A stretch of DNA of 64,000 nucleotides from a virus (IMGVR_UViG_3300046163_000090:1-64000), one strand, 5' to 3'; positions 26,979 to 46,188 are shown, numbered from the stretch's first letter. A program made the numbers and translations. The notes: a model not told the origin generated them from the sequence alone.

Positions 26979-27571
26979 TATATTGTGATGTTGTTTAAAC
27001 TACTTATACACTTTTCGAAATTCGCGATCATTGGAGTGATATAAGGTTTGGGTAAAAATTCAGCACTAGATACAAAATTTTCTGACTGTATACCTCCTCC
27101 TGATCTACTTTTATCACCACCTTTCGCTAAAAATTGTCCAAAGTTAGATATACCTTTCTCGATACCTTCAGCCCAGCTTCTGCCCTGAGCCCATGGTAAT
27201 GGAGTCATTTCAAAAATTTCCTTAACGGATGGATACAATACATAACTTTGCGAAGATCCATCTTTGTTGATCATAATTTTAGTTAAGATTATTCCATGCA
27301 TCGCTTCTCTTATCACCTCTGTAGGCTTTTCGCCAGCTTTAAATCCTATAAAAGAAAAAAGATTACCCTTACCTGATAGAGTTAATGATATATTTGATGA
27401 ATTATTTCCAGCTTCTATCTCTTGGGTAATTCTACTTGAATTAAATTGTTGAATTAAATTTCTTTTACATGAATTAAATTTTTGCGTGACAATCCTATTT
27501 ACATACATTACATAATCTCTAGACTTTCTTAAATCTATTGAATTTTTAATACTTCTATTAGCAGAGCTCAT
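26978..27571 (-). CDS. Putative tail completion/neck protein (HK97 gp10-like position)
   Basis: 197-aa basic ORF with WAEGIEKG and C-terminal PKPYITPMI, resembling the gp10-like A..E.G...P.PF..PA pattern; coupled to the next gene by overlapping stop/start codons. Confidence 0.45.
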   Translation of the reverse strand: MSSANRSIKNSIDLRKSRDYVMYVNRIVTQKFNSCKRNLIQQFNSSRITQEIEAGNNSSNISLTLSGKGNLFSFIGFKAGEKPTEVIREAMHGIILTKIMINKDGSSQSYVLYPSVKEIFEMTPLPWAQGRSWAEGIEKGISNFGQFLAKGGDKSRSGGGIQSENFVSSAEFLPKPYITPMIANFEKCISSLNNITI

Positions 27572-27572
27572 A

Positions 27573-28031
27573 TTAACCCTCGTCTACAGGCTTCAAGTAA
27601 AATGTGTAAAACTTTGGAGTAAATAAACCATGAGGCATTTCATCGCTTATTATTGAAAATTTCCTGCCATCGAATTCGCAACGTTTAGTTTCCTTGAGGT
27701 AGGAATACCCCACCTTATCAACTTTTATTCTGACCTCTCCTACATGCTTCTCCACTTTAATTTGGGCATTTACATCTGCATCAAATATATCTTCGTTTTG
27801 TCGGCCAATATATAATATTCTAGCTTTAAATTTAGCCTCTATAATCTCCCTTTTTACTGAGGTTATATTTCCGCTTACATTTTTATATAAGTAATTATAG
27901 TTAGGATCGGTACTCAATACAACTCTTTGAGCTTCTTTTATAAATTTTATATCACGAGCAAATGTGTCATGAATATCATCAAAAACAGACTGAAAAGCCT
28001 CCTTGTCACTATCGCTAATTAAAGAACCCAT
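27573..28031 (-). CDS. Putative head-closure (stopper) protein
   Basis: Small beta-rich ORF (FKARILY..VRIKVD..CEFDGRKFSIISD..FYLKPV). ATG at 28031 chosen because a GTGTA element lies 9 nt upstream, as for several other genes. Confidence 0.45.
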   Translation of the reverse strand: MGSLISDSDKEAFQSVFDDIHDTFARDIKFIKEAQRVVLSTDPNYNYLYKNVSGNITSVKREIIEAKFKARILYIGRQNEDIFDADVNAQIKVEKHVGEVRIKVDKVGYSYLKETKRCEFDGRKFSIISDEMPHGLFTPKFYTFYLKPVDEG

Positions 28032-28040
28032 ACTTTTTTT

Positions 28041-28065
28041 TACACACAATACAATAATATGTGTA
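28041..28065. promoter_or_regulatory. Divergent pair of GTGTA elements (candidate back-to-back late promoters)
   Basis: TACAC at 28041-28045 (9 nt before the minus-strand ATG at 28031) and GTGTA at 28061-28065 (22 nt before the plus-strand ATG at 28088). Confidence 0.65.
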
Positions 28066-28087
28066 TCTTTAATTAGGTAAAAGGTTT

Positions 28088-28369
28088 ATGCAAGCAGGAA
28101 AATTTCTATCTGATACGGTAAAAGGTAGCACTAAAAGTTTATTCAAAAGCTTCTTGGTGTTAATTGAGGACCTGTACGCTGAAAACGAAATCAGTTTTAA
28201 TAAACTAAAAAAGCATCTTCCTGAGTATTCTGACATTATTGATCAGGCTAATTACTTTGATGAAGATAAGATGCAGTATTTAAGAAAAAAAATTCTCGAT
28301 ATAGGCAATGAATCTATGAGAGAAAATAATTCTAATATAGAAAAGTTTACTGTAAATTTTAAATTTTAA
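28088..28369 (+). CDS. Hypothetical protein (93 aa, helical)
   Basis: ORF with an AAGG RBS-like motif and upstream GTGTA; first gene of the plus-strand block. Confidence 0.75.
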   Translation: MQAGKFLSDTVKGSTKSLFKSFLVLIEDLYAENEISFNKLKKHLPEYSDIIDQANYFDEDKMQYLRKKILDIGNESMRENNSNIEKFTVNFKF

Positions 28370-28404
28370 GAATATAATATATTTTATAACAAAGGAATAA
28401 GGAA

Positions 28405-29286
28405 ATGTATACAAAAACAAATAAAGAAATCTATCGCTTTACAATTAATTTAAATGAAGATGTCGAGAAAGAAGTCGATGTTGAAAAAGAAATTGATGTA
28501 GAAAAAGACGTTGAAGTCGAAAAAGAAGTTGATGTTGAAAAAACTCGCACCAATGAAAATGGCGAACAAGAGACTTATACTGAAAAAGAAAAACAAATTG
28601 TCGTCGAAAAGAAAACAGTCAAAGAGACTCAAGTTGTAAAAGAAAAAAGAAATGAGACAATAGTCAAAGAGCATGTCTTTGTTATAACGCAGCCAACGAG
28701 AAGACAAATGGAAGAGGCTGATATGGAGTATAGTATTGAAATGAGTAAGTGCGTGAAGCAAGGCATTTTAACTAAGGCTATGCTATTGAATAAGTATAGT
28801 GATACTGGTGGAATTATGAGTGAAGCTGAAGCAAAAGATCTTTCCGAGATGTACGGCAAACTGAGTGAACTACAAACTATGTTTACATCCTGGAAACTAA
28901 CTGACAAGCAAAATTTTTCAGATAGTCAAAAGCAAGTAATCGAAGAAATGGCTTCTTTGAGGAGAGCGATAGCTAAAACTGAAACAAATTTTTCAGCACT
29001 ACTTAGCCATACAGCAGATAATAAAGCTCAAGCCAAAGTTATTTCTTGGTATTTGCTACATTTAACGCACCAGGACAATAATGGTTCTATAGAGGAATAT
29101 TTTAAGGGGTCTTCTTTTGAAGATAAAAAAGATTACCTGTACTCTCTTGAAGAAAATGAAGATGATCTTTTTGCTGCCGTTTATGATAAGCTTACTGCTT
29201 TTCTAAGTTTTTGGTATTTTAGTGTTTCCGCAAGCAAAGAAGACTTTGAAAATCTTGAAAAAGATATAGACGAAGGTAATCTATGA
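28405..29286 (+). CDS. Putative tail assembly chaperone 1
   Basis: Acidic helical protein two genes upstream of the TMP; TAAGGA RBS; paralogous by eye to the next gene; contains an (EKEVDV)n insertion. Confidence 0.55.
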   Translation: MYTKTNKEIYRFTINLNEDVEKEVDVEKEIDVEKDVEVEKEVDVEKTRTNENGEQETYTEKEKQIVVEKKTVKETQVVKEKRNETIVKEHVFVITQPTRRQMEEADMEYSIEMSKCVKQGILTKAMLLNKYSDTGGIMSEAEAKDLSEMYGKLSELQTMFTSWKLTDKQNFSDSQKQVIEEMASLRRAIAKTETNFSALLSHTADNKAQAKVISWYLLHLTHQDNNGSIEEYFKGSSFEDKKDYLYSLEENEDDLFAAVYDKLTAFLSFWYFSVSASKEDFENLEKDIDEGNL

Positions 29287-29287
29287 T

Positions 29288-30292
29288 GTGGAACTTGCTG
29301 ACTATAGAAAAATCTTTAAAGAAATAATTCAAGGCTGCACTAAAGCTGCTGTAGGCGACAATATATATTATATTAAACATCTGACAGCTCATGATCAAGT
29401 TGATATTGATGAGATCAATGATAAATACTATCAGCAAGCTATAGATAGAGGAATACCTACAGAAAAAGAAGTATTAAAAGATCTTGAAAAAGACGGTCAG
29501 TGGACTCATTTAGAAGAAAAGCAGATTGAAAAGTTAGAAGTTTTTATCGAGCAGTTACAAAAAAATAAAAGTGCTCTTGTCTTAAAGTCTGAAATAAATA
29601 GGCAAAACCAATCCATAGCCGAAACTCGAGCTAAAATTAATGCCTTGCAGGAAAAAAGAGCCGCCCTTCTTGGTATTAATGCAGAATCATATGCCAGCAA
29701 AAGAGCCAATGATTACTATATTATTAAATCCTTTTTTCATGACGAAGAAATGGCGGACCCCTTATTCTCTAAAGAAGATGATTATAGTAAGTTATACGCA
29801 GATGAAGTGCAGGCTTTTGTATCTGCCTATAATAATACTTTTCTAGCTTTTGAAGAATTAAAAATTCAAGAAATGATATTACAAGATTTTTATTATATTT
29901 ATTTTCCTTTTTGTGATGATACTGTTGGTTTTTTTGGCAAGCCAGTTTCTCAACTAACTTATAATCAATTAAAATTAATCGTATATACAAAAATATTTAA
30001 AAATATATTCGAGACAAATAAACATATTCCAGAAAAAATTAAAAAAGACCCGCAAGCGCTACTTGACTATGGAAGCATCAGTGAAGACGCCAAGTCTAAA
30101 ATGAAAGAGAAGCTAGATAAAGATCAAGATGGAGCAACTTTATTTGGTGCTACTGATGAAGATTATGAATATGCAGGTCTCGATAAACCTTCTGATAGGT
30201 CTGGAATATCAATACAAAAAGCTGCAGAAAAGAAAGGCGGCTCTTTATCAATGGAAGATTTGATGGAATTAAGTGGAATCCCTAAAAAATAA
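29288..30292 (+). CDS. Putative tail assembly chaperone 2 (gpGT-like role)
   Basis: GTG start 1 nt after the previous stop; directly upstream of the TMP; C-terminal FFGKPVSQLTYNQL resembles a gpT-like segment. Confidence 0.55.
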   Translation: MELADYRKIFKEIIQGCTKAAVGDNIYYIKHLTAHDQVDIDEINDKYYQQAIDRGIPTEKEVLKDLEKDGQWTHLEEKQIEKLEVFIEQLQKNKSALVLKSEINRQNQSIAETRAKINALQEKRAALLGINAESYASKRANDYYIIKSFFHDEEMADPLFSKEDDYSKLYADEVQAFVSAYNNTFLAFEELKIQEMILQDFYYIYFPFCDDTVGFFGKPVSQLTYNQLKLIVYTKIFKNIFETNKHIPEKIKKDPQALLDYGSISEDAKSKMKEKLDKDQDGATLFGATDEDYEYAGLDKPSDRSGISIQKAAEKKGGSLSMEDLMELSGIPKK

Positions 30293-30321: not shown

Positions 30322-33300
30322 ATGACAGGTGGTTTGAATAGTTTAGGAGTAAGGACTCATGAGGTTGGCTTGGTGCCTAGCATTCAAGCTGCAGTCAAAA
30401 GAATTAATAGAGCTGGTATAGTTGTAAGGGTTAGAGCTAGTGATTTCACTCAGCCCTTAGGTAAGATGTCGGCGAAAGCTAATGAATTTACAAAATCTTT
30501 AGAAGCATCCAATGCTCGTGTTATTGCTTTTGGGGCTTCAGCTGCAATTATAGGTGGAGTAACTACAGCTTTCTCGCAATTAGTTATACAAGCAGCAAAA
30601 GTTGAAAAAATTCTCGCAGACATTAATGCTGTACTAGACACGTCTAGTGAAAATTTAAGAAAATTTGGAGATGGTTTATTTAATGTTGCCAGAAATACCT
30701 CTCAAGCGCTTGAGGTAGCTGCGGAAGCTGCGTTAGAGTTTTCGAGACAAGGTTTATCGATGGAAGAAACTCTAAAGAGAACAAATGACGCTCTAATACT
30801 AACAAGGCTAACAGGCCTAGCTGCAGCAGATTCAGTAAAAGGTTTAACTGCCGCAGTTAATGGTTTTGCAGATGCGGGCCTTACTACTACAGAAATTATT
30901 AATAAATTGGCTGCAGTAGACGTTAAGTTTGCTGTTAGTGCAGATGACTTAATTAACGCTCTTGCAAGAGCTGGTGCTGTAGCTCAAGATGCTGGTGTCG
31001 ATTTTAATTCATTAGTTGGAGCTGTTACTTCTGCTCAACAAATTACCGCTAGAGGTGGAGCAGTTATAGGTAATAGTTTCAAGACTATCTTTACCAGACT
31101 TCAAAGAAGCTCTACCCTAGACAGATTACAAGAATTAGGGATTGCAGTAAGAGATTTACAAGGAAACACCTTACCAGCCATAAATATTTTAACAGAACTT
31201 TCACGCTCTTATGATACCCTAGGAGCCGCAACTAGAGCGGCTGTCGCAGAACAAGTTGGTGGAGTATTTCAAATTAATGTACTTAAGGCAGCTTTAAAAG
31301 ATTTAGGTAAAGAAAATTCTTTGTATGCCCAAGCTACTCAGACAGCTTCAGATGCGACAAACGAAGCATATCGAAAAAATGAGATGCTCCAAAAAACACT
31401 TTCCTCAATTGCCAATCAAACCCTTACCACCGTCAGAGAATTGACAGCTAACTTGGGCGATTTAACTATCGCTCCAGCTTTAACTAGTTTTCTGGACAGC
31501 ATAAATGGAGCTCTATCTGCCGTATCTGACTTATTTGGAGAGAAAGAAGGAGAGAGTATTGGTTCTGACTTTGCTAAAGGTTTAGCTCGAGCGGTAGGTA
31601 ATGTTTTATCTGGTCCAGGAATGTTTGGGCTAGTACTTATTTTTGGAAAACTTTTTGGGCAAGCTTTCAAGTTTGCAAAAAATTCAGTAAAGGATCTATT
31701 GCAAATCAAAAGCATTAAAGATCAAGAGCTAGCGATACAGGAATCCATTGTAGATGCAATGCTTTCAAATGTTCAGCTTCAAGAAGCACTATTAAGACTT
31801 GACGGAGATCAATTAAAACAAGAACAATTAGTTCTTAATGTCTTAAAGGATCAAACAAAAATGCTCGAAAAACAAAGGTCTATTGCTTCTAGCATAGCTC
31901 CAGGGTTGCGTCAAGCTGGAGTGCAACCAAACTTAATTGTAGATGCGGGTAAAAATAAAGGAGCTACAGCAAGAACAAATAAATCTTCGGGTCACATACC
32001 TACGGCTATAGAAGAAATAAAAGAGAGGGCTGGAGCAAGGCAAGGCGGTTATATAGCTGGCCCAATTGCGACTATGTCAATTCCAACAGTAGGCAGAGTT
32101 GTTTACAATAAAAACGAAACAATAAAGCAATTTGATGGAATGTCTCAACCAGCCATAATGCCCCCTGAAAAAAGTAAAGCTGGGAAAGAGTATAAAAACG
32201 ACTTTTCTACACATCATGGCTTTGACCCTTATTCTCATAATTCATTTAGTGCAGGGGGATTTATTCCGAATTACTCTTTCTCGACAATGAATCAAAATAG
32301 GCTACGCGATAGTAAATCAAGAAATAGGGGCGTCAAAAACCTTAACTTAGAATACTTTTATCCTGCAGCTGGACAAGGTGGTGGCACTATATTTAAAATG
32401 TATAAAGATATAGTTCGCTCTGCAGACTCTGGTCAACCTTATACCAATATACTGGCTGGAGAAATTATTGGGCCGAGGATACCAAAAATGATCGTCGAGG
32501 GTAAAAAGATGTTAGATAAAGCTAGATTATCTGGCAAAAAAATTCCCAAAATGTCAATTCAAGGAACAATCTTTCCGTCTATGTTGACTCGCAAAATTGA
32601 TAAATTTGCTTCTGACAGAAAAGATGGCTATATTCATCCACCTGTTGATTATATCCCTGGAGAAGAATCTGAAGTCAGAAAATACCTTAAGAGCTTAGGT
32701 GCTGACCCAGAATCTCATGATACTGTTAAATTACAGAATGTATATAAAGGTGGTTATGATACTGGCTTCATTCCTAGCTTTGCTTTGAAAGCTGGACTTA
32801 TTCCTGGGACAAACATTCTAAGATTACCTACAGCTAAGATGATTAATGAAACTACAGCTTCTGATTTCAAGGGTAATAAAATTAAAGGCTGGCAAACTTT
32901 AGAGGCTACAGTTGATAATGTGCAAAAGCATGCACAAACATATAGAAATGAATTAAGCGAACTCAAGAAAGTTGGAGTGGATTTGTTGCAAAGAAAAATG
33001 TATTTCTCAAATCAATCTCAACATATACCAGTTAAAGATAGAAAAAAGATAGCTCGCCAACAAAAGAAGATGACGTCCATGAAGGGTTTTGCTGGCCGCA
33101 ACCAACACAAGATTACTGGCAACTCTCAAGAAGACGCTTTATTTAAATCTTCTCTCGAAAATAAAGGTTATTATCCAACTTGGACTGGAGCTTATACGGC
33201 GGAGGGCAGACAAAAAGGTAAAGGCGATGAAAACTTTAAGGTTGACTTCTTTGCTCCTGGTCGTAAGCCAATAGAATCAAAATACGGAAAGTATACTGCC

Positions 33301-36300
33301 CCTAATCTTATAGCTAAAAGCATACGCCTTTATAGTGATAGTTATATTGAGGAATTTTTATCTAGATCAGGCAGATCAGATTTATCCGAAAATATGCGAA
33401 AAGGCAAGTTGAAGGACTCGACTAATATGTTAACTTCCTTAGGCTATAAAGATGTTAATGCGGATATGGTGTTAAGAGCAGGGTTGTTCAACGGTTATTT
33501 ACCTGACAGAAAGAACAACGTTAATCAAAACCTGAGAACCGTTAAAGAGTTAGAAGGTCGCGAAACTGTGTCAGGTTATTCAGCTATGAGTTCAAGCGAG
33601 ATGTTTGATGAATTTTCTTCTAATTCTGACAGAAATTTTCCAGGATTAGAAAAAATGTCTAAAGATGGAATATGGAATAATAAAAACAAAAAATCCAGAA
33701 AAAAAGAGAGCTTTTACCACAGGGGAATCGTACCTAATTTTTCCAAAAACTGGGCACAAGGCAAATCAAAATCTTCAGACAAAAATCAAGGCAGAAAAAG
33801 AAGCCCTCAGGCAGAAATAATAAAAGCTATCAGGGCTACTCTTAGCAAAAGGGGTATAAAAAGAAGTGCCATGGCTGAAGATAAAATTTTATTTGCTGCA
33901 GAAAAATATATATCGGCCACAAAAAGCAGAGACTACCCTGGTGGATATGTTAATGTAAATGGAAATAAAATTAATTTAAACGAAATAACTTTAGCTCTAA
34001 AAAAACATGGCGACTACCACCCATCATTTGATGATACAGTAGAATTTGATGGAAGTAAAAACCATAAGGACAATTTAATGTTTGAAGAGTTGGAGCAAAA
34101 ACGACTTCCAAATTTTGCAAGATACGGCATGTCATCTTTGAGAAGCCCTATTATGTTTAAGAATGGAAACGAAGGTAGTTTTGGTAGATCTTATTTAGCA
34201 ACAACTTCAAAGTCGGGTAAATTATTTTTACTAAAAGACGGCCATAAACCTTTCTCTGATTATATGAAAAAGATGGGTAAACCCGAACCTAAATTAAAAG
34301 AAGGTGCAGTCGGGGGAAGAGAAGGTTATTGGGTGAATTCGGGAGCTGACGATGTTAAAACTTGGGCAGAGCTTCCAAATACTAAATTATTAGCTTCTCA
34401 GGAAAAAAGGAGAGCCGAAGCGCAGGCTATAGAAAACGACAGAAAGGCTAGATTAAATCCTGGAGTATTTGATCCAGTTTTATCTAATGGTAAAATTTTC
34501 TTCAGCGATGGTTCTAGCGGTTCTGTTAACCCCGATTCCCTTTCTAAAAAAATGGGCAAAGAATATAAACATGTCGAAGTTGATAAGAGAGCCCTGCATA
34601 ACTATGCAAAAGAAAACAAGATAACTAAAAAAAGCGGCGGCACAGAAAGTACTCATTTAGGTAATGCTTTTAATAAAATCTTAAACCTACCTAGAAGCGA
34701 GTTTCTTAAAATGAAGCATATTGTTCGCCCGAGAATGCAAACTGATGGAGAGAAAGATTTAGAAAGAAAAATGAATGCTCCTAGCAAACCTATTAAATGG
34801 GATGTTAGAGATAACCAAAAAGGTAAAAAACAATATAATTTAAAAGCGGATGATACAACATTCAGACAGTTCTCTACATTCTTGCTAGACCAAGGAGTCC
34901 CCAAGAGAAGTGTAGATAATATACACAAAGCTCTCGCAAATAAACAAGCTCATTTAGATAAAATAGTTAAAGAAGCTAGAGACAAGAGGAGTATGGGCAG
35001 AGGCAGAGGCGTGTTTTTTGACGCAGCCAAGAAACAAGAAAGCTTTGAAAAAGGTTTTTCTATACCTACTGATGGATTATTTATCAAAAATCTAAATCAA
35101 ATGGTTAGGGATTTTAATAAAACTGTTTATAACTCTGATGGATTTATTCCTAATTTTATGTTTGGAAATGAAGCTCCAGAACAAAGTACCCTGTATCCTA
35201 CGAAAAAAGATTTAAAAATAAAACAATACAATAATGCATTAAAAGACTTCCTGGAGCATCAGGACAATATAAAAAACAAAGCCTGGTCTATGGCAGATTT
35301 TGCAGGCTATATAAATAACGATGAACTATCATACCCTAATCTCGGAGACACTGCCGCTGGACACTCGGTCAATATTCTAAAAGGCAAAAGCCTCATATAT
35401 CATAGTTTAGCGAAATCAAGCAAACCTCTTCTTGAGGAATTTGTTACAGGCTTAGGTAGAAAAACAAACGCTCAATCCATAGGAGCAGCATACGAAAAAT
35501 TAATTGAAGATAATTTTGGGGTTCAGTCACTAGGACACAATGCTCCAATAGATTACAAAAACCTTGGTCAAAAAGTAAACGACTTTAAAGAAGTAAGAGA
35601 TCCTTCTGGAAATGCTATCAATGAGCCTAAATATACTTTACTTAACAGCACAAAACCTAATTCTCCCGTAGAAGCTGCTGGTGGTACGGGACACACAAAA
35701 CAACATATGGGTCGAAAAGGTCCACGTTTTGCAGCTCAAAATCCAACTGGACTAAATGACATAAAAGCGACGATTTTAAGTACTCTTAAAGGTGGACCAA
35801 CCAAAACAAAGGAACCATTAACAATAGGGACTGAACGAATAGTAGAATTAACTCAAAAAGGCCAGAGCGATGAACAGAACTTATCAGGCTATGATCCAAA
35901 GTTTAAGGCCTTTCAAATAATTTCAGAACCTTCAGATACAGCATTCAAGAAAACAAAAAATATTCTTAGATCTATGAAGGGAACAAAGCAAGTGAAAGAT
36001 AAATCTGCAATCAGCAGCAGGGTAAAAGCTCAAAAAGGTAATAATTTTAATATTAACCTTTTTGGTGGGTATGGAAAATCTGCACATCTAGTAGGTTCTC
36101 AAAATATGATAAAGCTAGAACAAGAGATTGAACAAGAAATAAATAAACAATATAAAAATCAAAGTTCAAAAAATAAAGCAAATTTCAGCAAACAAGTAAA
36201 GAATGCTTCTCAAAATACTTTCGAAATAAAATACGATAAAGATATACTGGATCTCGCGACCCATCCAATAACAAAATCACACGGACACATTCCCAACTTT

Positions 36301-39300
36301 TCCGCATGGAACCCTCTGACTAAAAATACTCAAAGCATTGCAAAGCAAGGCGGCTTAGCTACTAATAAGTTTGATCTTGCAAAAATAATTCAAAACTCTC
36401 CGTTCAAAGACTTGCTACGCAGACATTACCATTGGAATAACTTTCCCGAAAAACATAAAAAGCGCCTCAACGAATGGCTTAGGTCTCAAGGCTACACAAA
36501 TAGGACACTGCAAGGATGGGGTGTACTTTCGAGAAATAGTGGATCCATAGCGAAAGGAGCTACAGAAATACTAACGTCTTCTGGGCACATTCCAAATTTT
36601 GCAAACCCACTAGGAGATGCTATATCCAGAGAGAAAGAAGCCCTGAGAGAGCGAGGCTCTGCCGCCGACATTTACATAGATCAAGATAATAGACTCAAGA
36701 ATCCAAAGAATCCAGCAGGTTTATTGGTTGCTAATACTCGAGACGAACCTAAGTCTGGCTCGCAAGGCGTTAATCGAGCAATATCGATGGGTATGGATCC
36801 AAAAACTCATGGTGCGAGCAGTGGGGTTGTTCCGAATTTCGCATCAAGCACAAAGGGTAGTAGCAGTAGTAATAAATCCGCTAACGAAATAAAAGACACA
36901 GGCAAGGCAATGAAAGAAGCTGGTGATGCTAGCGGTGACCTTATGATGAAAATGATGGGCCTAACCACTCTTACTTATGCTTTAGATGGAGCCATGGGTG
37001 AAGCTTCAGAAACAGCTTCTGGCTTTCAAAAAGCAATGGGGGTAGTAAATGCTGCCATAATGGGGGCTAGTCAAGCAGCCATGCTTGCAATGGTAGTGCC
37101 TAAAGGTACATCTGCGAAAGGTAGAAGAAAATTGAACGATGGATTCGAAAAGGCTAAAAACGCCTATGGTTCCAAAAATCAAAGTACGGGATCAAGACTC
37201 AAAGCTGGGCTAGGTGGAGCTGGAATGATGGCAAAAGGAGCTGGAGGAATGTTGATGGGTGCGCTTGGACCTCTAGGCATGGCTGCAGCAGCATTAATTC
37301 CAATCTTTTCAGCTCTAAAAGAACAATTTGGTTTATTTAAAAGCAATATAGAAAACATTGGCGATTCACTAAATGCTGCCAGAAAACAACAAGACTTACT
37401 TAACCAAGCTACATCAAGTTTATCTTCCGAGCAACAAAATGCAAAAAGTATTATAGAATTAGAATCCAAAGGTAGAAATCTAAGTTCTGAACAAATGAAT
37501 GAATTGCATAAATTAAGGATTCAAGAAATTCAAAATCAAGGTAAGTTGCAAGGAAGCTTGGAATCGGTTTCAGCTAATTTTGATTTATCAGAAAAACAAC
37601 TTAAACTTTTAAGTGGCTCATATGCTGATCAACAAAAACTATTAAAACAATTAGAATCAGCTCAAGTCAGATACATTGCATCTTTAGAACTAAGAAAAAC
37701 TCGGGCAGAAAACAGAGAAAAACTAGGTGATACAGACGCTGGGCTTGCTGATTTTTTAAATATTTTTCAGCTGGGTGACTTCCAAAAAACTCTTGCATTG
37801 GGTAAAGAATCTGCCGATAATATAGCTAGGGGTGAAGCTGATACTTTTTACGAGACTTATATGTCTGGAAAAATCAATGAAGGTAATGCTCAAGAAGTTA
37901 ATAAGCAAATAAGTGGAATTGTTTCCCTAAATCTTAGTAAATTAAGAGGTGGTGATGCTTTTGATTACGAAGATTTTGCAAGAGACGATGAATTTCAAAG
38001 TCAATTTTCTAACTTAGCTAAAACCTTAGGTTATGAAAATAATCCAGAAGAAGGTCCAGATTTAAATGAATTTAAACGAAGAATGTCTGAATCAATAGCT
38101 TCCGTAAATGCTCAAAGTTATTACTCTGGAATATTCGGGACTAACTTAAATCCGTTTAACAGTGGACAATTCACACAAGACGAACGAGAAACATCAAAAA
38201 CTTTCAAACAACAACTTCAACGTAGAGTTTCTGGAGCGAAAGAAGATGATGCAGCAAAAATTGCCAAAAAAAGCGAACAAGTAAATTTAATTGACATTGC
38301 CAATGAATCTAATAAAATGGCAAAACAAATATCCTTTGAGCAAGATAGAGCTTTGTCTTTAGCTAAACAACGATTAAAAATTGAGCAGAAAATTTTTGAA
38401 CAAGATCAAGCTAGATTAGGGTTGACTGATGAAATAGAAGATTTTCTTGGAGTGTTAAATGTTGATCAAAAAGTAGATAGGCAGTTTGATCGAAAAGAAA
38501 CAGCTATTGATCAAAAAGCAGAACAAGATATTAAATCCCTAAGAATTGATGCCAGGGCAGAATCTAAAAAATTCCTCGAAGATAAAATAAAAACAGATAG
38601 ACTTAATAATTCAATGTTTGACCCCATGACTGGAATCAATCAAGATAAAGTTGAAAAACTTCTACGAGAGATTGCAGATAATACAGATCCCAATTCAAAA
38701 GCAACATCAAAAGAAGAGATAGACTTTGCTAACAAATTCGAAAGGTCAGCTATAGAAGCAATGAAGGGCAAGGGCATCGATCCTTCGTCGTTTAATAAGG
38801 AGAAAGAATTAACCGAACAATTGAATAAGGCTATTGCGAAACGAAACGAAATAAATGCTAATTATAAAGATGATCAGTATATGAGGAAAAGGATGACTGA
38901 GCAAAACCCCGAAGCAAGTGAGGAAAATATTCAGCAGCTTTTTAATGAAAGGATACAAGCTAGAGCAGACAACCCAATCCTTAACAAAGTAACTCGGGCT
39001 CAAGAAGATTTTACCTCCCGATATACAAAAGGGTTCAATCAGGTTATGGCAGATTTCAGAGAAAGAAAACAAGTTTTGGCAAGGCCAGATGCTATCAGAA
39101 TATATGAACAGTCTAGTGACTACAAGGCTTTAGAGAAAGATATGCAGAACAAAATTCAGTCACTTGTAGAAATGTCAATATCTGGAAGCAATAACCAGAA
39201 TAATGAAGGCAAAGAGCAGACTAAGCGTCTTAGTTTTAGCAACACATTATACAATGAAGCTGAGAGAACGATATCAAGAGCTAATAAATCATTACTCAGT

Positions 39301-42300
39301 AAAACAGAGCTCGAGCTACAAAAAAGCCTAAAGATTCAAGAGAGAATAACTAAAGAAGCTCAAAGTCCAGCTCATTTAAATCAGCTTTACTCAGAAAATC
39401 CTAGAGCAAATCCTAAACATATTTCTAGTTTAGAAGAACAAATAAAAGATCTCTCGAAACCTCCTGCGGATACAACCTTGAGTAATAAGCCTGAAGGATA
39501 TAAAATATCGTCAACATATGATATTAAGGAGATGGACGAATACATACTCAAAACAAAAGAAAGATTAAAAAACTTGAACTTTAGTAATGGCAGCACTTTA
39601 TCTGGATCCACAAATCCTGATGCTGCCACTGATAACATTAATTCAATAAAGAACCAGGAAACAGAGGAAGCTATAGCTAGCATTCCGCCCGTTTCACCTA
39701 GTGAAAAAGCTTTAATGAATAATGCAAGCTCGCCAGAACGAATAGATATTCAAGCCAGAGCTAAAGAACAAGATACTGCTGACCGCATAAAGCTAGTAGG
39801 AGCGAATGCTCAAGCAAAAGGAGTTAAGGATGGCACTAGAATAGCCGAAAGTAAGCTAAAAGATAAAGCTAATTCCTTAACTAATAGAGAGCAAACTATA
39901 CTTCCAGATTTATTTCAACAGCAACAAATACAAGGAATTAAGTATGACTCTAGTCCATCAGTTTCCAATCCTGGAGTATTCGGCCAAACAGGTGACATGC
40001 CTTTAGTAAATCCGAACGATCCTATTTATCCAATTAATCAAGCAAGAATGGGTAAAGATTTAGCTCTGCCAGTTTCTACTCCAGATAAAATTGACGGAAA
40101 ATCTACTGAAGCTCGAGCGAAAAGTGAAGCTGAAATTAATAAGATTATGAGTGAAATTTTTATCCAGCTTAGAGATCACAAAAAGATAGCTGGTGGTGTT
40201 GTTGATAAAACTAAAGCTAGAAGTATGATTATTGATGGTCTACTTCAACTTGATGATGATATTGAAAGAGCAAAAGCTATTGAACTTATTAACACTTCAA
40301 ATGTAACAACTTATACTGATCATGAAATTGATTTAATAAAACAAGGATTGAATCAAAAACAAGCTACATTATCTGATCAAGAGCAAGCCGCTCGACAGGA
40401 AAAGAAAGCGAATAAAGATGATCTAGATCTCCAGAAACTCAGTGAATCATTCCGAAATAGAACAAACGCAGGCCTCCAAGAAACTCTCAGAATAAGAGGC
40501 GATATTAATAATTACGAAGAAAGAGTATCAGATGCCGTTCAACATAATCTTGGAGTTCAAAGCGGATTTGCGAAACTTTCATCCGAAATGCTTAATGTGC
40601 AAATAGGGAAACTCAGAAGCATGGAACGGGATGGCTCTCTAGCAAAACATTCCGAGAGTTTAGCAAATGAAGAGCTTGGCAGAGAAGAGAAGCAGCGAAT
40701 ATTGAGCACTGCTATGCTTAAAGCAAAAAATAATTTACTAGATGGCACGGAAAGAGGTGTCCAGATTGCTGGAGATAATTTTGATGCTCAAGAAGAAGAA
40801 CGCAGATTGACCTTAATCGCCGCTCAAAATAAATTAAAACTTTCAAATTTATCTGAAAAACTATACAAGCAGGCAGAAACTGAAAGCTCCATAAAAGTAG
40901 CTCAATTAGCTATTGAGAATAAACTACTAGCTCAAAAAACAAAATTATATGAGACTACAGAAGCTTTAACAAAAGAAGTTGAGGGCGAGTTAGAGCAGCA
41001 AAGGCGAGCAACTTATAATACAGGATTGCGCAATCAAGAAACTAATAGATTAAACGATCAAATGATTACAAATCCTAATGATCCATATTTTGGGATGACT
41101 GGCTTTCAAGCAAATGCTCAACAAAGAGCCCAAGATTTAAATACTGCCCAGACATCTCAAGTAAAAAATGCCAGAGCAGATTTCCAGCTTTACACAGGAA
41201 GAGGTAATGAATTAAGAGCTTCTGAAACTAGACTCCAGCTTTTGCAATTTCAAAAACAACAAAATATAGAAAACGGAAAAGGGAGAATGTTTTCTGATAC
41301 TATAGCAGTTAGAATCGCTGAAGTTAATGTTGAACTTGATCGATTTAATGAAACCTTAGCTAATACAGCATTTGATAGTGTAAAGCAAGGGTTCAGGGAT
41401 ATGATGGACACTATGGCCTCTGGCACAGCTGAAATGAGCGATGTATTCGGAGCTTTCTTGGGTTCAATCGTTTCAGCTATAAGTGATAAGTTAATAGATA
41501 GAGCCACAGCTCAAATTACCTCAGGTCTTTTTGATATAATTGGCATTGGAGAGCACAATAAAGGTGGGATAGTAGGATATAATCGTGGAGGTTATGCTAT
41601 GGGGGGTAAGTCGTCTCAGACTCCAGCAATGTTAACTGCTGGAGAATATGTTGTAAGAAAGAAAGTTGTAGATAGATTAGGCTCTGGAACTTTAGATAAA
41701 ATGAATAAAACTGGCTCATTAGATTCTTTATACCAAGAGCCTAGCACTAATAATTTTGATATCTCTACATCAAGTGGTGCTCCAGGTATGGCTTTCATGA
41801 ATGAAGGAGGATGGCTTAGTAGGCAATGGGATACAGCTAAGTCAACTTTCTCTCCCTTTACATCTTCCTCAAGTGATTCCAGTTGGGGTAGAGTTGCTAA
41901 AGGTAGCGGTATGCTTTTAGGCTCGTCCTATGGTGCCTATGAAGAGGCTCAGAAAAATGCTGCAGATAATGCTCCAGAAGCTCCACAAGCCCCTTCAACA
42001 GCAGTATTAAATACGACTTCAGATTTAAGTTTAGATCCATCTAGCAGCTCAATGTCTCCTTCGATGCGACAAGGTGGCAATAGTTATGCCCAACAATACG
42101 GAGATTATTTATTGAAAAAGTATGATTATGATGTTCAACAAAATAATCAAGCTGTTGAGGCAAAAGCTGGATTCTGGCAAGGCATGGCAAACCAATTCGG
42201 AGTTGCCCTCGGAGGTGCAGCAGTAGGTAAATTTACATCTTCCCTTGGAGCCGCCTGGGATACTAGGTGGGGAAGCGAAGCAACTGTAGAAAGATGGAAT

Positions 42301-43080
42301 AAACAAGGTATTCACAGTGCCGCAGATTTAGCTGAAAAAAAACCCAATAGTTTCGGTTACTACAAAAATGCGATGAATGACTACAGGGATAGAATGGGTT
42401 TTGATTCAATGTCAACCGATGATATAACCTCGGGCAAACCTGTTACTGGAGCCGACATGCTTAGGGCGAGCAATTCATCTCCATCTTGTTCAGGCGGAGT
42501 ATGCTCGACTTCTGATAATCTTGGTATGACAAAAAATAATGACTATAGGAGCACTTTTCACTCACCAGAGCAAATTGCTTTTTCTGATGCTTTATACGGT
42601 AGGGCAAACCTGGCTCCTGGCTTAGATATGAAAAACAGTAATTTTTTAAATAATGGCTATTTGAAGAAAAATAATGGTGGTATTATCGATTCTCCCATTC
42701 AGGGTTACAGCTCTGGCGGAAAAGTTTATGGTCCAGGAGGCATAGATAAAGTTGGCCCAGTTATGCTTGATAAAGGAGAATATGTGGTAAGAGCATCAAG
42801 CGTTAACAGTATCGAAAAACAATTTCCAGGATTTTTTGATCAACTTAATGCAATGAGGTTTAATCAAGGCGGTTCAGTCGGAGGCACTCAATCTAAGTCA
42901 GAGTCCTCCTCTCAGCAATCAGGTAATGTAACTGTTAATATCAATGTTGCCTCTGATGGTAGTTCTTCGAGCTCCTCAAGCGGTGGTGGTTCAGAACAGC
43001 AAATGGCTTCCAAGATTAAAGATGCTGTTGTTGGTATTATTGCTCAAGAAAAGAGGGTTGGAGGAATGCTGAGTGGCTAA
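30322..43080 (+). CDS. Tape measure protein, 4252 aa, with a central motif-delimited multi-module insertion
   Basis: N-terminal TP901/PhageMin_Tail-like core (AAEAALEFSRQGL..ARGGAVIGNSFKTIFTRLQ..LQELGIAVRD), hydrophobic Gly/Ala segments, long coiled coils, two C-terminal P.ML..GEYVVR motifs typical of TMPs; located between chaperones and tail tip genes. Confidence 0.92.
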   Translation: MTGGLNSLGVRTHEVGLVPSIQAAVKRINRAGIVVRVRASDFTQPLGKMSAKANEFTKSLEASNARVIAFGASAAIIGGVTTAFSQLVIQAAKVEKILADINAVLDTSSENLRKFGDGLFNVARNTSQALEVAAEAALEFSRQGLSMEETLKRTNDALILTRLTGLAAADSVKGLTAAVNGFADAGLTTTEIINKLAAVDVKFAVSADDLINALARAGAVAQDAGVDFNSLVGAVTSAQQITARGGAVIGNSFKTIFTRLQRSSTLDRLQELGIAVRDLQGNTLPAINILTELSRSYDTLGAATRAAVAEQVGGVFQINVLKAALKDLGKENSLYAQATQTASDATNEAYRKNEMLQKTLSSIANQTLTTVRELTANLGDLTIAPALTSFLDSINGALSAVSDLFGEKEGESIGSDFAKGLARAVGNVLSGPGMFGLVLIFGKLFGQAFKFAKNSVKDLLQIKSIKDQELAIQESIVDAMLSNVQLQEALLRLDGDQLKQEQLVLNVLKDQTKMLEKQRSIASSIAPGLRQAGVQPNLIVDAGKNKGATARTNKSSGHIPTAIEEIKERAGARQGGYIAGPIATMSIPTVGRVVYNKNETIKQFDGMSQPAIMPPEKSKAGKEYKNDFSTHHGFDPYSHNSFSAGGFIPNYSFSTMNQNRLRDSKSRNRGVKNLNLEYFYPAAGQGGGTIFKMYKDIVRSADSGQPYTNILAGEIIGPRIPKMIVEGKKMLDKARLSGKKIPKMSIQGTIFPSMLTRKIDKFASDRKDGYIHPPVDYIPGEESEVRKYLKSLGADPESHDTVKLQNVYKGGYDTGFIPSFALKAGLIPGTNILRLPTAKMINETTASDFKGNKIKGWQTLEATVDNVQKHAQTYRNELSELKKVGVDLLQRKMYFSNQSQHIPVKDRKKIARQQKKMTSMKGFAGRNQHKITGNSQEDALFKSSLENKGYYPTWTGAYTAEGRQKGKGDENFKVDFFAPGRKPIESKYGKYTAPNLIAKSIRLYSDSYIEEFLSRSGRSDLSENMRKGKLKDSTNMLTSLGYKDVNADMVLRAGLFNGYLPDRKNNVNQNLRTVKELEGRETVSGYSAMSSSEMFDEFSSNSDRNFPGLEKMSKDGIWNNKNKKSRKKESFYHRGIVPNFSKNWAQGKSKSSDKNQGRKRSPQAEIIKAIRATLSKRGIKRSAMAEDKILFAAEKYISATKSRDYPGGYVNVNGNKINLNEITLALKKHGDYHPSFDDTVEFDGSKNHKDNLMFEELEQKRLPNFARYGMSSLRSPIMFKNGNEGSFGRSYLATTSKSGKLFLLKDGHKPFSDYMKKMGKPEPKLKEGAVGGREGYWVNSGADDVKTWAELPNTKLLASQEKRRAEAQAIENDRKARLNPGVFDPVLSNGKIFFSDGSSGSVNPDSLSKKMGKEYKHVEVDKRALHNYAKENKITKKSGGTESTHLGNAFNKILNLPRSEFLKMKHIVRPRMQTDGEKDLERKMNAPSKPIKWDVRDNQKGKKQYNLKADDTTFRQFSTFLLDQGVPKRSVDNIHKALANKQAHLDKIVKEARDKRSMGRGRGVFFDAAKKQESFEKGFSIPTDGLFIKNLNQMVRDFNKTVYNSDGFIPNFMFGNEAPEQSTLYPTKKDLKIKQYNNALKDFLEHQDNIKNKAWSMADFAGYINNDELSYPNLGDTAAGHSVNILKGKSLIYHSLAKSSKPLLEEFVTGLGRKTNAQSIGAAYEKLIEDNFGVQSLGHNAPIDYKNLGQKVNDFKEVRDPSGNAINEPKYTLLNSTKPNSPVEAAGGTGHTKQHMGRKGPRFAAQNPTGLNDIKATILSTLKGGPTKTKEPLTIGTERIVELTQKGQSDEQNLSGYDPKFKAFQIISEPSDTAFKKTKNILRSMKGTKQVKDKSAISSRVKAQKGNNFNINLFGGYGKSAHLVGSQNMIKLEQEIEQEINKQYKNQSSKNKANFSKQVKNASQNTFEIKYDKDILDLATHPITKSHGHIPNFSAWNPLTKNTQSIAKQGGLATNKFDLAKIIQNSPFKDLLRRHYHWNNFPEKHKKRLNEWLRSQGYTNRTLQGWGVLSRNSGSIAKGATEILTSSGHIPNFANPLGDAISREKEALRERGSAADIYIDQDNRLKNPKNPAGLLVANTRDEPKSGSQGVNRAISMGMDPKTHGASSGVVPNFASSTKGSSSSNKSANEIKDTGKAMKEAGDASGDLMMKMMGLTTLTYALDGAMGEASETASGFQKAMGVVNAAIMGASQAAMLAMVVPKGTSAKGRRKLNDGFEKAKNAYGSKNQSTGSRLKAGLGGAGMMAKGAGGMLMGALGPLGMAAAALIPIFSALKEQFGLFKSNIENIGDSLNAARKQQDLLNQATSSLSSEQQNAKSIIELESKGRNLSSEQMNELHKLRIQEIQNQGKLQGSLESVSANFDLSEKQLKLLSGSYADQQKLLKQLESAQVRYIASLELRKTRAENREKLGDTDAGLADFLNIFQLGDFQKTLALGKESADNIARGEADTFYETYMSGKINEGNAQEVNKQISGIVSLNLSKLRGGDAFDYEDFARDDEFQSQFSNLAKTLGYENNPEEGPDLNEFKRRMSESIASVNAQSYYSGIFGTNLNPFNSGQFTQDERETSKTFKQQLQRRVSGAKEDDAAKIAKKSEQVNLIDIANESNKMAKQISFEQDRALSLAKQRLKIEQKIFEQDQARLGLTDEIEDFLGVLNVDQKVDRQFDRKETAIDQKAEQDIKSLRIDARAESKKFLEDKIKTDRLNNSMFDPMTGINQDKVEKLLREIADNTDPNSKATSKEEIDFANKFERSAIEAMKGKGIDPSSFNKEKELTEQLNKAIAKRNEINANYKDDQYMRKRMTEQNPEASEENIQQLFNERIQARADNPILNKVTRAQEDFTSRYTKGFNQVMADFRERKQVLARPDAIRIYEQSSDYKALEKDMQNKIQSLVEMSISGSNNQNNEGKEQTKRLSFSNTLYNEAERTISRANKSLLSKTELELQKSLKIQERITKEAQSPAHLNQLYSENPRANPKHISSLEEQIKDLSKPPADTTLSNKPEGYKISSTYDIKEMDEYILKTKERLKNLNFSNGSTLSGSTNPDAATDNINSIKNQETEEAIASIPPVSPSEKALMNNASSPERIDIQARAKEQDTADRIKLVGANAQAKGVKDGTRIAESKLKDKANSLTNREQTILPDLFQQQQIQGIKYDSSPSVSNPGVFGQTGDMPLVNPNDPIYPINQARMGKDLALPVSTPDKIDGKSTEARAKSEAEINKIMSEIFIQLRDHKKIAGGVVDKTKARSMIIDGLLQLDDDIERAKAIELINTSNVTTYTDHEIDLIKQGLNQKQATLSDQEQAARQEKKANKDDLDLQKLSESFRNRTNAGLQETLRIRGDINNYEERVSDAVQHNLGVQSGFAKLSSEMLNVQIGKLRSMERDGSLAKHSESLANEELGREEKQRILSTAMLKAKNNLLDGTERGVQIAGDNFDAQEEERRLTLIAAQNKLKLSNLSEKLYKQAETESSIKVAQLAIENKLLAQKTKLYETTEALTKEVEGELEQQRRATYNTGLRNQETNRLNDQMITNPNDPYFGMTGFQANAQQRAQDLNTAQTSQVKNARADFQLYTGRGNELRASETRLQLLQFQKQQNIENGKGRMFSDTIAVRIAEVNVELDRFNETLANTAFDSVKQGFRDMMDTMASGTAEMSDVFGAFLGSIVSAISDKLIDRATAQITSGLFDIIGIGEHNKGGIVGYNRGGYAMGGKSSQTPAMLTAGEYVVRKKVVDRLGSGTLDKMNKTGSLDSLYQEPSTNNFDISTSSGAPGMAFMNEGGWLSRQWDTAKSTFSPFTSSSSDSSWGRVAKGSGMLLGSSYGAYEEAQKNAADNAPEAPQAPSTAVLNTTSDLSLDPSSSSMSPSMRQGGNSYAQQYGDYLLKKYDYDVQQNNQAVEAKAGFWQGMANQFGVALGGAAVGKFTSSLGAAWDTRWGSEATVERWNKQGIHSAADLAEKKPNSFGYYKNAMNDYRDRMGFDSMSTDDITSGKPVTGADMLRASNSSPSCSGGVCSTSDNLGMTKNNDYRSTFHSPEQIAFSDALYGRANLAPGLDMKNSNFLNNGYLKKNNGGIIDSPIQGYSSGGKVYGPGGIDKVGPVMLDKGEYVVRASSVNSIEKQFPGFFDQLNAMRFNQGGSVGGTQSKSESSSQQSGNVTVNINVASDGSSSSSSSGGGSEQQMASKIKDAVVGIIAQEKRVGGMLSG

Positions 43081-43876
43081 CAAAAATTCAGTTTCAAATT
43101 ACGAACAACAATTTTACTTGTCAGGAATTCTGCTGTCTGGAGTCACATCTATTAATGGCAGTTATTCAATTGAAGAATCTCCAATTAATATCATTGGGCA
43201 TGGTTATACCTACCCTGTTGCTCAAGGACCAATGGTTGGAAATTTTTCTTTACAGAAATATTTTATTGGTGAAGATCCAATATTAAACTATACTGGCGAT
43301 AGCCCTATTAGCGGAAGTGTTAATTATGGGGATAAAAGTTTTGGATTTGAAGAAGGTTATTTAACTGAATATTCATTTAGTGCGGGCATAGGCTCGATAC
43401 CTCAATCGAGTGCTAGTATAGTTGTTTATGGCGACATTGGCGAAGGTATTGATGCCTCAGGTTCTAACCCTCATCCAGAAATACAAATAGCTAATCAAGG
43501 CTCAATTTCATTAAATGCAAATGGATATCAAACAAACAGAATCACTAATTTTGAATATAGTTTAAGAATTAACAGAACTCCTTTATATAAAATAGGCTCA
43601 CCATTTCCAGTGCAAGTTGATACATCATTTCCAATCATGGAAGAAGTTAATGTTGTATTTGATGTCTCTGATTATGAAATTAGAAAAATGAACGATAATC
43701 TAATTAGACCGAATCAACAAGATGTAGAAATTTCTGTAAAAAATCCATTAAACAATAATAATATAGAAACATTTGAAATTAAAAAAGCTAGATTATTAAA
43801 TCATAATATAAGTTCTTCAAGCGAGGATATAATGTCTGTTAGCTTGAGGTATATGGGATATAGAAATAAAAGATGA
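43073..43876 (+). CDS. Tail tube-fold minor tail protein
   Basis: Shares motifs with the tube protein (GYLTEYSFSAGIGSIPQSSAS; INRTPLYKIGSPFP....FP); GTG start overlapping the TMP stop. Confidence 0.6.
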   Translation: MANKNSVSNYEQQFYLSGILLSGVTSINGSYSIEESPINIIGHGYTYPVAQGPMVGNFSLQKYFIGEDPILNYTGDSPISGSVNYGDKSFGFEEGYLTEYSFSAGIGSIPQSSASIVVYGDIGEGIDASGSNPHPEIQIANQGSISLNANGYQTNRITNFEYSLRINRTPLYKIGSPFPVQVDTSFPIMEEVNVVFDVSDYEIRKMNDNLIRPNQQDVEISVKNPLNNNNIETFEIKKARLLNHNISSSSEDIMSVSLRYMGYRNKR

Positions 43877-46175: not shown

Positions 46176-46188
46176 TTTAATATAATAT

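Follow-up and report, generated by a model that had tools for sequence, protein, structure and literature searches.

Architecture of the tape measure gene

The window analysed here is the first 64,000 nucleotides (64 kb) of a single-contig virus record of 117,477 bp (IMGVR_UViG_3300046163_000090:1-64000), and it contains a very large open reading frame (ORF; 30322-43080, plus strand) that runs as one uninterrupted frame for 4252 amino acids (aa). Pfam places the core domain PF10145 (PhageMin_Tail, TP901-type) on aa 123-314 (E 2.6e-22; 80.1 bits against a cut-off of 33.2), the PHROG tape measure families match the product with a best E of 1.9e-41, and a block of lambda-type tail tip genes (45039-54831, plus strand) lies 3' of the gene, in an order that is alike in related loci. 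By these profile matches and its setting, the product is the tape measure protein (TMP) of the tail, and the source of the window is an uncultured marine, lambda-like siphophage. The N-proximal part of the TMP contains an array of modules that are separated by a short conserved motif, and this array is the subject of the present analysis (Table 1).

Ten copies of the motif had been reported by a first-pass annotation between the N-terminal core and the C-terminal half of the protein, and all ten are in frame at those places: GHIPTA (aa 557), GFIPNY (646), GFIPSF (815), GYLPD (1058), GIVPNF (1135), KRLPNF (1260), GFIPNF (1607), GHIPNF (1988), GHIPNF (2088) and GVVPNF (2168), with spacings of 77-381 aa. 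Seven are canonical, KRLPNF is a variant that lacks the Gly, and GHIPTA and GYLPD are decayed copies at places where relatives hold canonical sites. The TMP contains seven matches to G.[ILV]P[NS][FY] as compared to a mean of 0.018 after shuffling (maximum 1 in 2000 shuffles), and seven to [ILV]PN[FY] as compared to a mean of 0.094. The form with Gly does not occur elsewhere in the 117-kb genome, and the long ruler half of the TMP, about 2000 aa, has no copy of the motif. It was also correctly noted that the motif is kept as protein with different codons: the 18-nucleotide sites average 65% nucleotide identity, third codon positions are identical in 51% of the cases where the residues of two copies agree, and most of the exact runs that copies share are no longer than 9 bases, although two copies have 15 identical bases in common.

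The array is bracketed, as judged by profile matches, by two copies of a small domain that we call the A domain, which stand between the N-terminal core on one side and the hydrophobic and ruler part on the other. The A domain is the best-conserved module of the family, with many invariant columns; each copy has the motif on both sides, and the two are joined by hhalign links of 89-93%. A search of PDB sequence profiles with the A domain gave 0 matches at E≤10, an Atlas search gave no usable match, and a retropepsin-like identity was dropped on inspection, as there is no D-T/S-G. The seven modules between the A domains have isoelectric points (pI) of 9.5-10.6 and a net charge of +91, and hydrophobic windows lie on either side of the array (aa 424-452 versus aa 2240-2260 and 2307-2333).

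Two of the early descriptions of the nine intervening segments stand in part. Most of them are Lys/Arg-rich as described (seven of the nine, with pI 9.5-10.6 and 14-19% Lys plus Arg), but the two A domains have a pI of only 8.2-8.4. Likewise, the segments belong to different families and so are largely unrelated to each other, except that the first and the last are the same domain of about 80 aa.

Table 1. Features of the tape measure gene, its module array and the tail tip genes in the window
Feature	Position	Strand	Basis or remarks
TMP gene, 4252 aa	30322..43080	+	Single ORF, PF10145, PHROG TMP families, tail tip genes downstream
N-terminal TMP core, aa 1-554	30322..31983	+	Kept in all relatives; hydrophobic segments aa 65-92 and 424-452
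A domain copy 1, aa 555-653	31984..32280	+	A5 profile E 2.6e-26; predicted helix, four strands and helix (AF2 pLDDT 57-90)
Motif before A domain copy 1, decayed GHIPTA	31990-32007	+	
Motif after A domain copy 1, GFIPNY	32257-32274	+	
Module E, aa 652-820, ends GFIPSF (32764-32781)	32275..32781	+	Segment family H, 21 members; pI 9.7
Module G, aa 821-1063, ends decayed GYLPD (33493-33507)	32782..33510	+	PD-(D/E)xK-like; AF2 pLDDT 74-87 over most
77-aa segment, ends GIVPNF (33724-33741)	33511..33741	+	
Module R125, aa 1141-1265, ends KRLPNF (34099-34116)	33742..34116	+	Up to three copies in relative P0004
Module O, aa 1266-1612, ends GFIPNF (35140-35157)	34117..35157	+	C-terminal half pLDDT 55-79; hhalign to family S 99.1%
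Module T, aa 1613-1993, ends GHIPNF (36283-36300)	35158..36300	+	G..YE ... D ... EA..GH pattern
Module L, aa 1994-2093, ends GHIPNF (36583-36600)	36301..36600	+	
A domain copy 2, aa 2086-2175, ends GVVPNF (36823-36840)	36577..36846	+	A5 profile E 8.1e-30
Gly/Ala/Met-rich hydrophobic stretch after the array	36937..37326	+	Hydrophobic windows aa 2240-2260 and 2307-2333
Long acidic motif-free part, aa 2401-3830	37522..41811	+	pI 5.5; presumed ruler
gpM-like gene (PF05939)	45039-46175	+	Profile match
gpL-like gene	46189-47085	+	Profile match
gpK-like gene, NlpC/P60 with weak JAB	47036-47791	+	Profile match
gpI+gpJ fusion gene	47788-54831	+	Profile match

Predicted structures were obtained with AlphaFold2 (AF2) from shallow alignments, and the mean per-residue confidence (pLDDT) was 54 for aa 545-1270 and 42 for aa 1255-2185. 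Within these models, confident domains are predicted at aa 558-644 (pLDDT up to 90) and at about aa 825-1055 (74-87), and domains of moderate confidence at about aa 1415-1600 and aa 2096-2155. The models, which are the sole basis for this point, have mixed helix and strand and are consistent with the early view that the segments are not regular coiled coil. They also place the motif between rather than within predicted domains, as all ten sites are in segments with pLDDT below 50 at domain edges. Much of both models is of low confidence, however, so that this linker placement is only modest support. Neither Foldseek nor VIA found a clear match to a known fold for the multi-domain models.

A separate feature of the C-terminal part of the TMP is a P-x-M-L-x-x-G-E-Y-V-V motif that occurs twice (41623-41655 and 42754-42789), each time after a Gly-rich stretch, and that is conserved in the family. 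Motifs resembling it occur in the C-termini of other TMPs.

Conservation of the motif in the family

A word-based search with aa 540-2200 of the TMP recovered 38 other giant TMPs of 2369-6389 aa. All 39 proteins, that of the window included, have 4-21 copies of [ILV]PN[FY], nearly all of them after G-x. The consensus extends over nine positions, [AS]-x-G-Φ-[IV]-P-N-[FY]-[AS], and a logo of 338 unique sites reads [AS]-x-G-(F 49%, L 17%, Y 14%, H 7%)-(I 54%, V 43%)-P-N-(F 87%, Y 13%)-(A 49%, S 18%). Conservation in this logo is confined to positions -4 to +4, and the flanks have none. Position -2 is Gly in 93% of the sites, position -1 is Phe, Tyr or His in about 70% (and Leu, Met, Lys, Glu or Asn in some lineages), position 0 is Ile or Val in 97%, and position -3 is variable (Ser, Gly, Arg, Asp or Glu). 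Since the sites of the logo were chosen by the pattern itself, a count that does not depend on the pattern was also made at eight aligned junction columns. The 129 instances in these columns have Gly in 126, Pro in 124, Asn in 125 (the rest Ser) and Phe or Tyr in 128; the residue that follows is Ala in 73 and Ser in 35.

The same picture is seen in larger collections. An alignment-based scan of IMG/VR matched at least 599 stretches, with relatives encoded in at least 570 of them, and 80 loci were taken for comparison. In 78 of these 80 loci, 2-11 motifs of the Gly form are present in the longest ORF; in the other two the longest ORF is a different gene, and the TMP ORF has 5 motifs in one and 4 in the other. 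A profile of the A domain, searched among 1.84 billion proteins, matched 1271 representative proteins at E≤0.001 and 967 at E≤1e-10. The best 150 of these matches are all 785-5354 aa long, and the 141 further representatives among them all carry the motif (2-18 copies each; 739 in total as compared to one after shuffling), the number of copies being correlated with protein length (r = 0.73).

Outside the TMPs the Gly form was not found in approximately 408,000 residues of other ORFs from 81 loci. There were 25 motif-like matches in those ORFs, all without Gly, and 13 further matches were in truncated TMP ORFs. By these counts G-Φ-[IV]-P-N-[FY] is a new, family-wide and strictly conserved short linear motif, one that keeps nine positions across proteins that are elsewhere only about 20% identical.

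The only other IVPNF string in the genome of the window is EIVPNFEA at aa 81 of the gpI+gpJ fusion protein; it lacks the Gly.

Modules are gained and lost at the motif

The smallest members of the family (about 1900-2300 aa) have exactly four motifs and the following layout: the N-terminal core (approximately 545 aa), an A domain (82 aa), one module of 250-300 aa, a second A domain (63-75 aa) and then the hydrophobic and long C-terminal part. The single module between the A domains belongs to families D, F, P or Y, and this layout, with a PD-(D/E)xK-like module in that place, is the skeleton common to the whole family. Larger members have up to about 14 further modules inserted between the two A domains, and some of them also have motif-flanked small domains between long C-terminal segments.

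When 116 TMPs were split at the motif, the resulting 922 segments clustered into 76 families and 100 singletons, whose order, number and copy number vary from protein to protein. The first-pass annotation had predicted conserved flanks and inter-motif modules that vary in number and identity, and the comparison of the family agrees with this. The motif was also proposed to mark points of cassette exchange, and two kinds of evidence bear this out. First, the blocks of homology end at it: 54.7% of the internal ends of BLASTP high-scoring segment pairs (n=32,153) are within 5 aa of a motif as compared to 6.9% of random positions, and 70.6% are within 10 aa as compared to 13.3%, counts in which the protein pairs are not independent and in which the motif itself is able to anchor the ends. 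Second, the five closest relatives, which are 78-91% identical in the shared parts, differ by whole modules that run from motif to motif. For example, an extra module of 164 aa follows site 1607 in proteins P0002 to P0005, extra modules of 124 aa are present in P0004, and a module of about 198 aa is present near site 646 in P0004 and P0005. These comparisons support an array of unrelated modules that are gained, lost and exchanged whole, precisely at the motif.

The possibility that the motif is the C-terminal tag of the cassette upstream of it was rejected, because knowing the upstream family lowers the conditional entropies of its variable positions no further than knowing the downstream family does.

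Contigs from four seawater runs over 31500-37500 were short and of low depth (below 8, at a likeness setting of 85%), and so what they contain is anecdotal. Two of these runs have joints (36838 to 36930 and 36839 to 36937) that skip or replace the Ser-rich stretch after the last motif. Another observation, from one run, is a loose end at 36595, where a different module ending in ...GYVP is joined to the A domain. The breaks at 36595 and at 36838-36937 coincide with motifs.

Some modules have enzyme-like motifs

In module G an Asp (D975, at 33244) and the E and K of E985-x-K987 (33274-33282) are invariant among the aligned sequences (16 of 16), and a Glu upstream of them (E937) is frequent. Homology joins families D, F, P and Y (hhalign 93.7-98.7%), which keep the pattern G..FE ... 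FD ... (D/E)xK at 90% or more; module G belongs to a separate family. At the level of motifs, module G and families D/F/P/Y would thus have a PD-(D/E)xK-like site and are putative nucleases. Module T and families W and Ah have the pattern G..YE ... D ... (D/E)A..G.GH, a likeness in pattern only for which hhalign is not significant.

Searches for named relatives of these modules returned little. Module G had 0 matches at E≤10 among PDB sequence profiles, and Pfam gave chance-level matches only, with no nuclease family, for the 16 G modules. The nearest named Atlas clusters (Mrr_cat, Tox-REase-7 and PDDEXK_14) had scores of only 0.76-0.77 and are weak leads. In the AF2 model the domain of module G is predicted with confidence overall, whereas the stretch with the D/ExK (model residues 423-443) has pLDDT below 50. 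A search with module G among proteins of 130-415 aa gave one match, of 229 aa and probably a fragment, and so no pool of free-standing proteins was found at that sensitivity. Pfam reported only PF10145 above the cut-off in the TMP of the window (P0001) and in P0109, P0114, P0002 and P0006; among the 38 homologues its listings gave PF10145 or nothing, with no protease or known effector domain, and PADLOC gave 0 matches on the whole TMP.

A cassette of 164-168 aa with a conserved Walker A sequence, LLLGPSGxGKTT, is present in P0002 (aa 1621-1784), P0003 to P0006, P0009, P0011 and P0015 and is absent from the window. In P0002 to P0005 it runs from motif to motif directly after the equivalent of the window site at 35140. 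A P-loop identity was not adopted for it, as Pfam gave only sub-threshold matches over the Walker A (AAA_7, E 0.12; Mg_chelatase, E 0.038). Zincin modules were also discarded: HExxH occurs in 16 of 258 TMPs, near the estimated chance level, and Pfam found nothing in three of the carriers.

The motif is uniform within a protein

The variable positions of the motif give each TMP what might be called a flavour, and this flavour is uniform within one protein across unrelated junctions. For example, all nine sites of locus L029 have PNY, 13 of the 18 sites of P0050 have Leu at position -1, and five of the six sites of L081 have Tyr. Three features of flavour (Tyr at the last position, an aromatic at -1 and Leu at -1) were compared among 230 TMPs with at least four motifs, and none of 2000 permutations gave clustering as strong. 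Protein relatedness does not explain why non-homologous junctions of one protein agree with each other; intragenic duplication or conversion could contribute to the uniformity. Because the flavour is uniform within a TMP across unrelated junctions, we infer from these sequence patterns that the motif is probably read in trans by one lineage-specific factor. Uniformity read in this way, as co-evolution with a single trans-acting factor, weakens the ideas that the motif is a mere linker or that it cleaves itself.

Possible functions of the motif

Conservation of the motif is weighted to its N-terminal side, and one small residue follows the aromatic Phe, which is the usual shape of polyprotein cleavage sites. 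In addition, the same conserved peptide is present at essentially every border of unrelated domains. Cleaved TMPs have precedents in lambda and T5 (PMC12617516). We tentatively consider the motif to be a candidate processing site within the TMP, although the odds are against any single reading, and two docking alternatives, with a partner from the phage or with a host chaperone like SurA, come close to it in likelihood. On the processing view, the cut would fall between the Phe of the motif and the small Ala or Ser that comes next, either once the tail is built or during expulsion of the TMP. The part of the TMP that exits the tail just before the DNA would then be freed at the entry site as separate proteins (nuclease-like, DNA-binding and so forth).

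Several points weigh against processing. Pfam and PHROGs found no protease domain in the TMP, its 38 homologues or the conserved neighbours, and the only peptidase-like gene nearby, the gpK-like NlpC/P60 gene, has no link to the motif. A protease acting in trans could hardly reach sites within a closed tail tube. In distant relatives the motif also flanks ruler segments of 800-1500 aa, and the ruler would be lost if the cuts were made before assembly. A Pro-Asn pair tends to form a tight turn, and such a turn is better suited to a docking knob than to the extended shape of a protease substrate. A strongly basic array between hydrophobic segments would also be compatible with a tethered cytoplasmic loop, and the authors who studied Thermus phage P23-45 propose that its cargo stays tethered to the TMP pore, without cleavage (PMC10770324).

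Docking to a partner encoded by the phage, for instance a chaperone of tail assembly, the lumen of the tube or some other conserved virion protein, is rather doubtful but accounts for several of the observations. The motif is short and linear, lies in predicted disordered linkers, has many copies and is exclusive to the TMP; its flavour is concerted in each TMP, as would be expected of co-evolution with one phage-specific partner; and conserved genes with no Pfam or PHROG name flank the TMP at every locus. The non-helical modules would interrupt the helical ruler, and it may be, with the same degree of doubt, that a docking handle at each junction holds the chain soluble, stretched out and in register during polymerisation of the tube. 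However, the spacing is irregular across the family (4 to about 1500 aa) and not commensurate with the tube rings, and the ruler half of the TMP in the window manages some 2000 aa without a copy. Moreover, no partner was found, and there is no G/T-type frameshift overlap between the two genes upstream.

A further, somewhat less likely, alternative is that the motif is a docking site for a periplasmic host chaperone of the SurA or peptidyl-prolyl isomerase (PPIase) type, which would hold or refold each module as it is expelled unfolded. The Pro is present in 124 of the 129 aligned sites, and the TMP is the one virion protein that has to go through the tube and into the envelope. The core [FY]-I-P-N-Φ corresponds to Y-I-P-N-V in the SurA ligand WEYIPNV, which is a selected binder of the P1 PPIase domain (Kd 1-14 µM; preference for Ar-X-Ar-X-Pro, where Ar is an aromatic; PMC11401910, PMC7195389, PMC11366764). 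The periplasmic PPIase FkpA is required for DNA entry of HK97, a requirement that the title of the study links to the TMP (PMC7229145), and imported colicin M also requires FkpA (PMC2615193). Against this, the resemblance to the SurA ligand came up after many known motifs had been tried, and so the match may be due to chance. The first aromatic of Ar-X-Ar-X-Pro is absent, as position -3 is variable and position -2 is Gly in 93% of the sites, and position -1 is not aromatic in those lineages that have Leu, Met, Lys, Glu or Asn there. In addition, the basic nuclease-like modules look as if they are bound for the cytoplasm, and all of the genome matches are metagenome bins.

The least probable explanation, and a very unlikely one, is that the motif has no reader at all and is a linker or turn favoured at viable chimera junctions, a recombination microhomology or a self-cleaving Asn-Phe site. 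Insertions and deletions run from motif to motif, homology breaks at the motif, and the 15 identical bases shared by two copies in the TMP gene would be in keeping with this, as would the nearly invariant Asn, since Asn-based self-cleavage inside assembled capsids occurs in some viruses. Yet nine positions are kept across proteins that are about 20% identical, which is far beyond the needs of a linker; the differing codons, with 65% nucleotide identity and shared runs mostly of 9 bases or fewer, speak against microhomology; the concerted flavour of whole lineages points to a partner; and self-cleavage would need a fixed geometry, which the disordered sites of the models do not have. An N-glycosylation sequon was dismissed, because Ala is commoner than Ser or Thr after the Phe, and sortase, clamp-binding, single-stranded DNA-binding protein tail and FtsZ C-terminal peptide motifs, judged by inspection, misfit the invariant Gly and Asn.

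If processing is nevertheless correct, a larger picture can be drawn, one that is itself more doubtful than probable. In a very large group of marine siphophages (more than 1,200 protein clusters), the lumen of the tail would contain a cassette-swappable polyprotein, with the motif as its processing site, perhaps by protease-free Asn-Phe self-cleavage inside the sealed tube. The polyprotein would act as a magazine of up to twenty proteins (nuclease-like, NTPase-like and other) fired ahead of the DNA, and new cassettes would be taken up at the motif, in an arms race against the defences that hosts have at the site of entry.

Comparison with known systems

The closest systems that have been described share some of these features. 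TMPs that are cleaved include lambda gpH (to gpH*) and T5 pb2, with the site and the protease unknown (PMC12617516). Like the processing proposed here, these TMPs are cut after tail assembly and expelled before the DNA, and the tail tip genes in the window are lambda-like; they differ in that there is one cut near the C-terminus, whereas the TMP of the window has up to ten signals (2-21 in the family) in its N-proximal third, all of them putative sites. Thermus phage P23-45 encodes gp96, a TMP of 5002 aa with an N-terminal virion RNA polymerase, and so resembles the present case as a giant siphophage TMP with an N-proximal folded enzyme that is delivered at infection. It illustrates that an enzyme fused to a TMP can act during entry. 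However, gp96 has a single cargo enzyme that is proposed to stay on the TMP pore, and no repeated junction motif or cassette array is described in the available text (PMC10770324). A tblastn search of INPHARED (50,697 phage records) with aa 541-2193 gave no match, and hence no relation to P23-45 was seen.

TMPs with a lytic domain, such as the motif of mycobacteriophage TM4 (PMC1796659) and T5 pb2C (PMC12617516), also have an embedded domain that acts on the host at entry. In those cases it is a single domain directed at peptidoglycan, as compared to several basic, partly nuclease-like and swappable modules here. The polyvalent proteins of phages and conjugative elements (Iyer et al. 2017, PMC5512222) have many unrelated domains in one polypeptide and high mosaicism; they are thought to enter with the DNA, and release by peptidases has been proposed. 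Their hallmark conflict domains (zincin-like MPTase, ParB, methylases and others) were not detected by Pfam in the TMPs scanned here. Furthermore, the available text describes no common junction peptide for them, and the words tape measure do not appear in the main text of PMC5512222. The Sle1-type effectors of actinobacterial contractile injection systems have a TMP-derived scaffold and an exchangeable domain and are loaded in a tail-like tube, but these systems are contractile and intracellular, there is one variable domain, and the available text mentions no repeated junction motif (PMC13277306).

A different parallel is found in the polymorphic toxins of bacteria, where VENN (in CdiA) and DPxGL (in Rhs) mark the border of cassette exchange and the Rhs motif is also a self-cleavage site. 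Those proteins have one junction per toxin, whereas the phage structural protein described here has many.

Distribution and significance

The central stretch of the array was found in 20 public runs from 17 studies, labelled as seawater (18), marine (one) and freshwater metagenome (one); three of the 20 are flagged as possible sources of the window DNA and are not independent of it. Among species-representative genomes the family is confined to metagenome bins (23 loci), whose labels vary and include Flavobacteria, Marinimicrobia, Halobacteriovorax, Cellvibrionales and one short contig labelled Bacillota. We take these loci to be mis-binned phage contigs or prophages. A tblastn search of INPHARED with the first 660 aa matched only the N-terminal core of TMPs from Bacillus, Lactococcus and other phages, at 27% identity or less, and at the sensitivity of tblastn neither the array nor the A domain is present in any cultured phage of INPHARED. 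A scan of IMG/VR with a single protein segment (aa 1260-2174) gave no relative. No publication on the motif in TMPs was found, and the motif strings appeared only in literature on subjects other than phages (supplementary files were outside this search). The motif-delimited, hypervariable cassette array in a TMP would therefore be new, and TMPs and other virion proteins that carry cargo domains are already known.

TMPs are usually treated as rulers and channel formers, and only a few are known with one enzyme. In this family, which is abundant in seawater metagenomes, the N-proximal third of the TMP is an expandable and quickly reshuffled holder of dozens of uncharacterised module families. 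If the motif is a cleavage site, it would represent a new route for the delivery of early phage proteins and would bear on the manner of TMP cleavage and the reasons for it; as a docking site it would be a handle for tail assembly or for hijacking a host chaperone at DNA entry. In either case the motif is a ready marker that delimits hundreds of uncharacterised phage domains presumably active at genome entry, the stage at which host defences such as SNIPE strike (PMC13190303). It may also offer a natural place at which cargo could be plugged into engineered phage tails, and the proteins with one flavour throughout (L029, P0050 and L081) could help to find the co-evolving reader.

Neighbouring genes

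Conserved genes around the TMP at every locus belong to families 0-6 and 9, for which Pfam and PHROGs gave no name. In the window the conserved neighbours are at 25989-30292 and 43073-45039, together with the gpK-like gene. They include genes for 293 and 334 aa at 28405-30292, immediately 5' of the TMP gene. A G/T-type frameshift between 28405-29286 and 29288-30292 was considered and dropped, because the second frame is open only from 29270.

The order and orientation of two blocks of these families, 6-5-4-0 (25989-30292 in the window) and 3-1-2, vary relative to the TMP among the members of the family. In a comparison of the window with L009, L011, L014, L029 and L047, the blocks are divergent in the window and co-directional in loci of the L047 type.

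Farther from the TMP gene, the gpI+gpJ fusion protein has a gpI-like domain at aa 1-168 and a gpJ-like central fibre at about aa 1890-2320, with approximately 1700 aa without assignment between them. Two giant ORFs on the minus strand, 318-16313 (5331 aa) and 16310-21271 (1653 aa), may encode fibre or adhesin proteins, and the product of the second has Calx-beta repeats (E 2.7e-16). Finally, three glycosyltransferase-like genes are present within the tail gene block at 57507-60470 (plus strand), two of them DUF2827 paralogues (E about 1e-64) and the third GT34-like.

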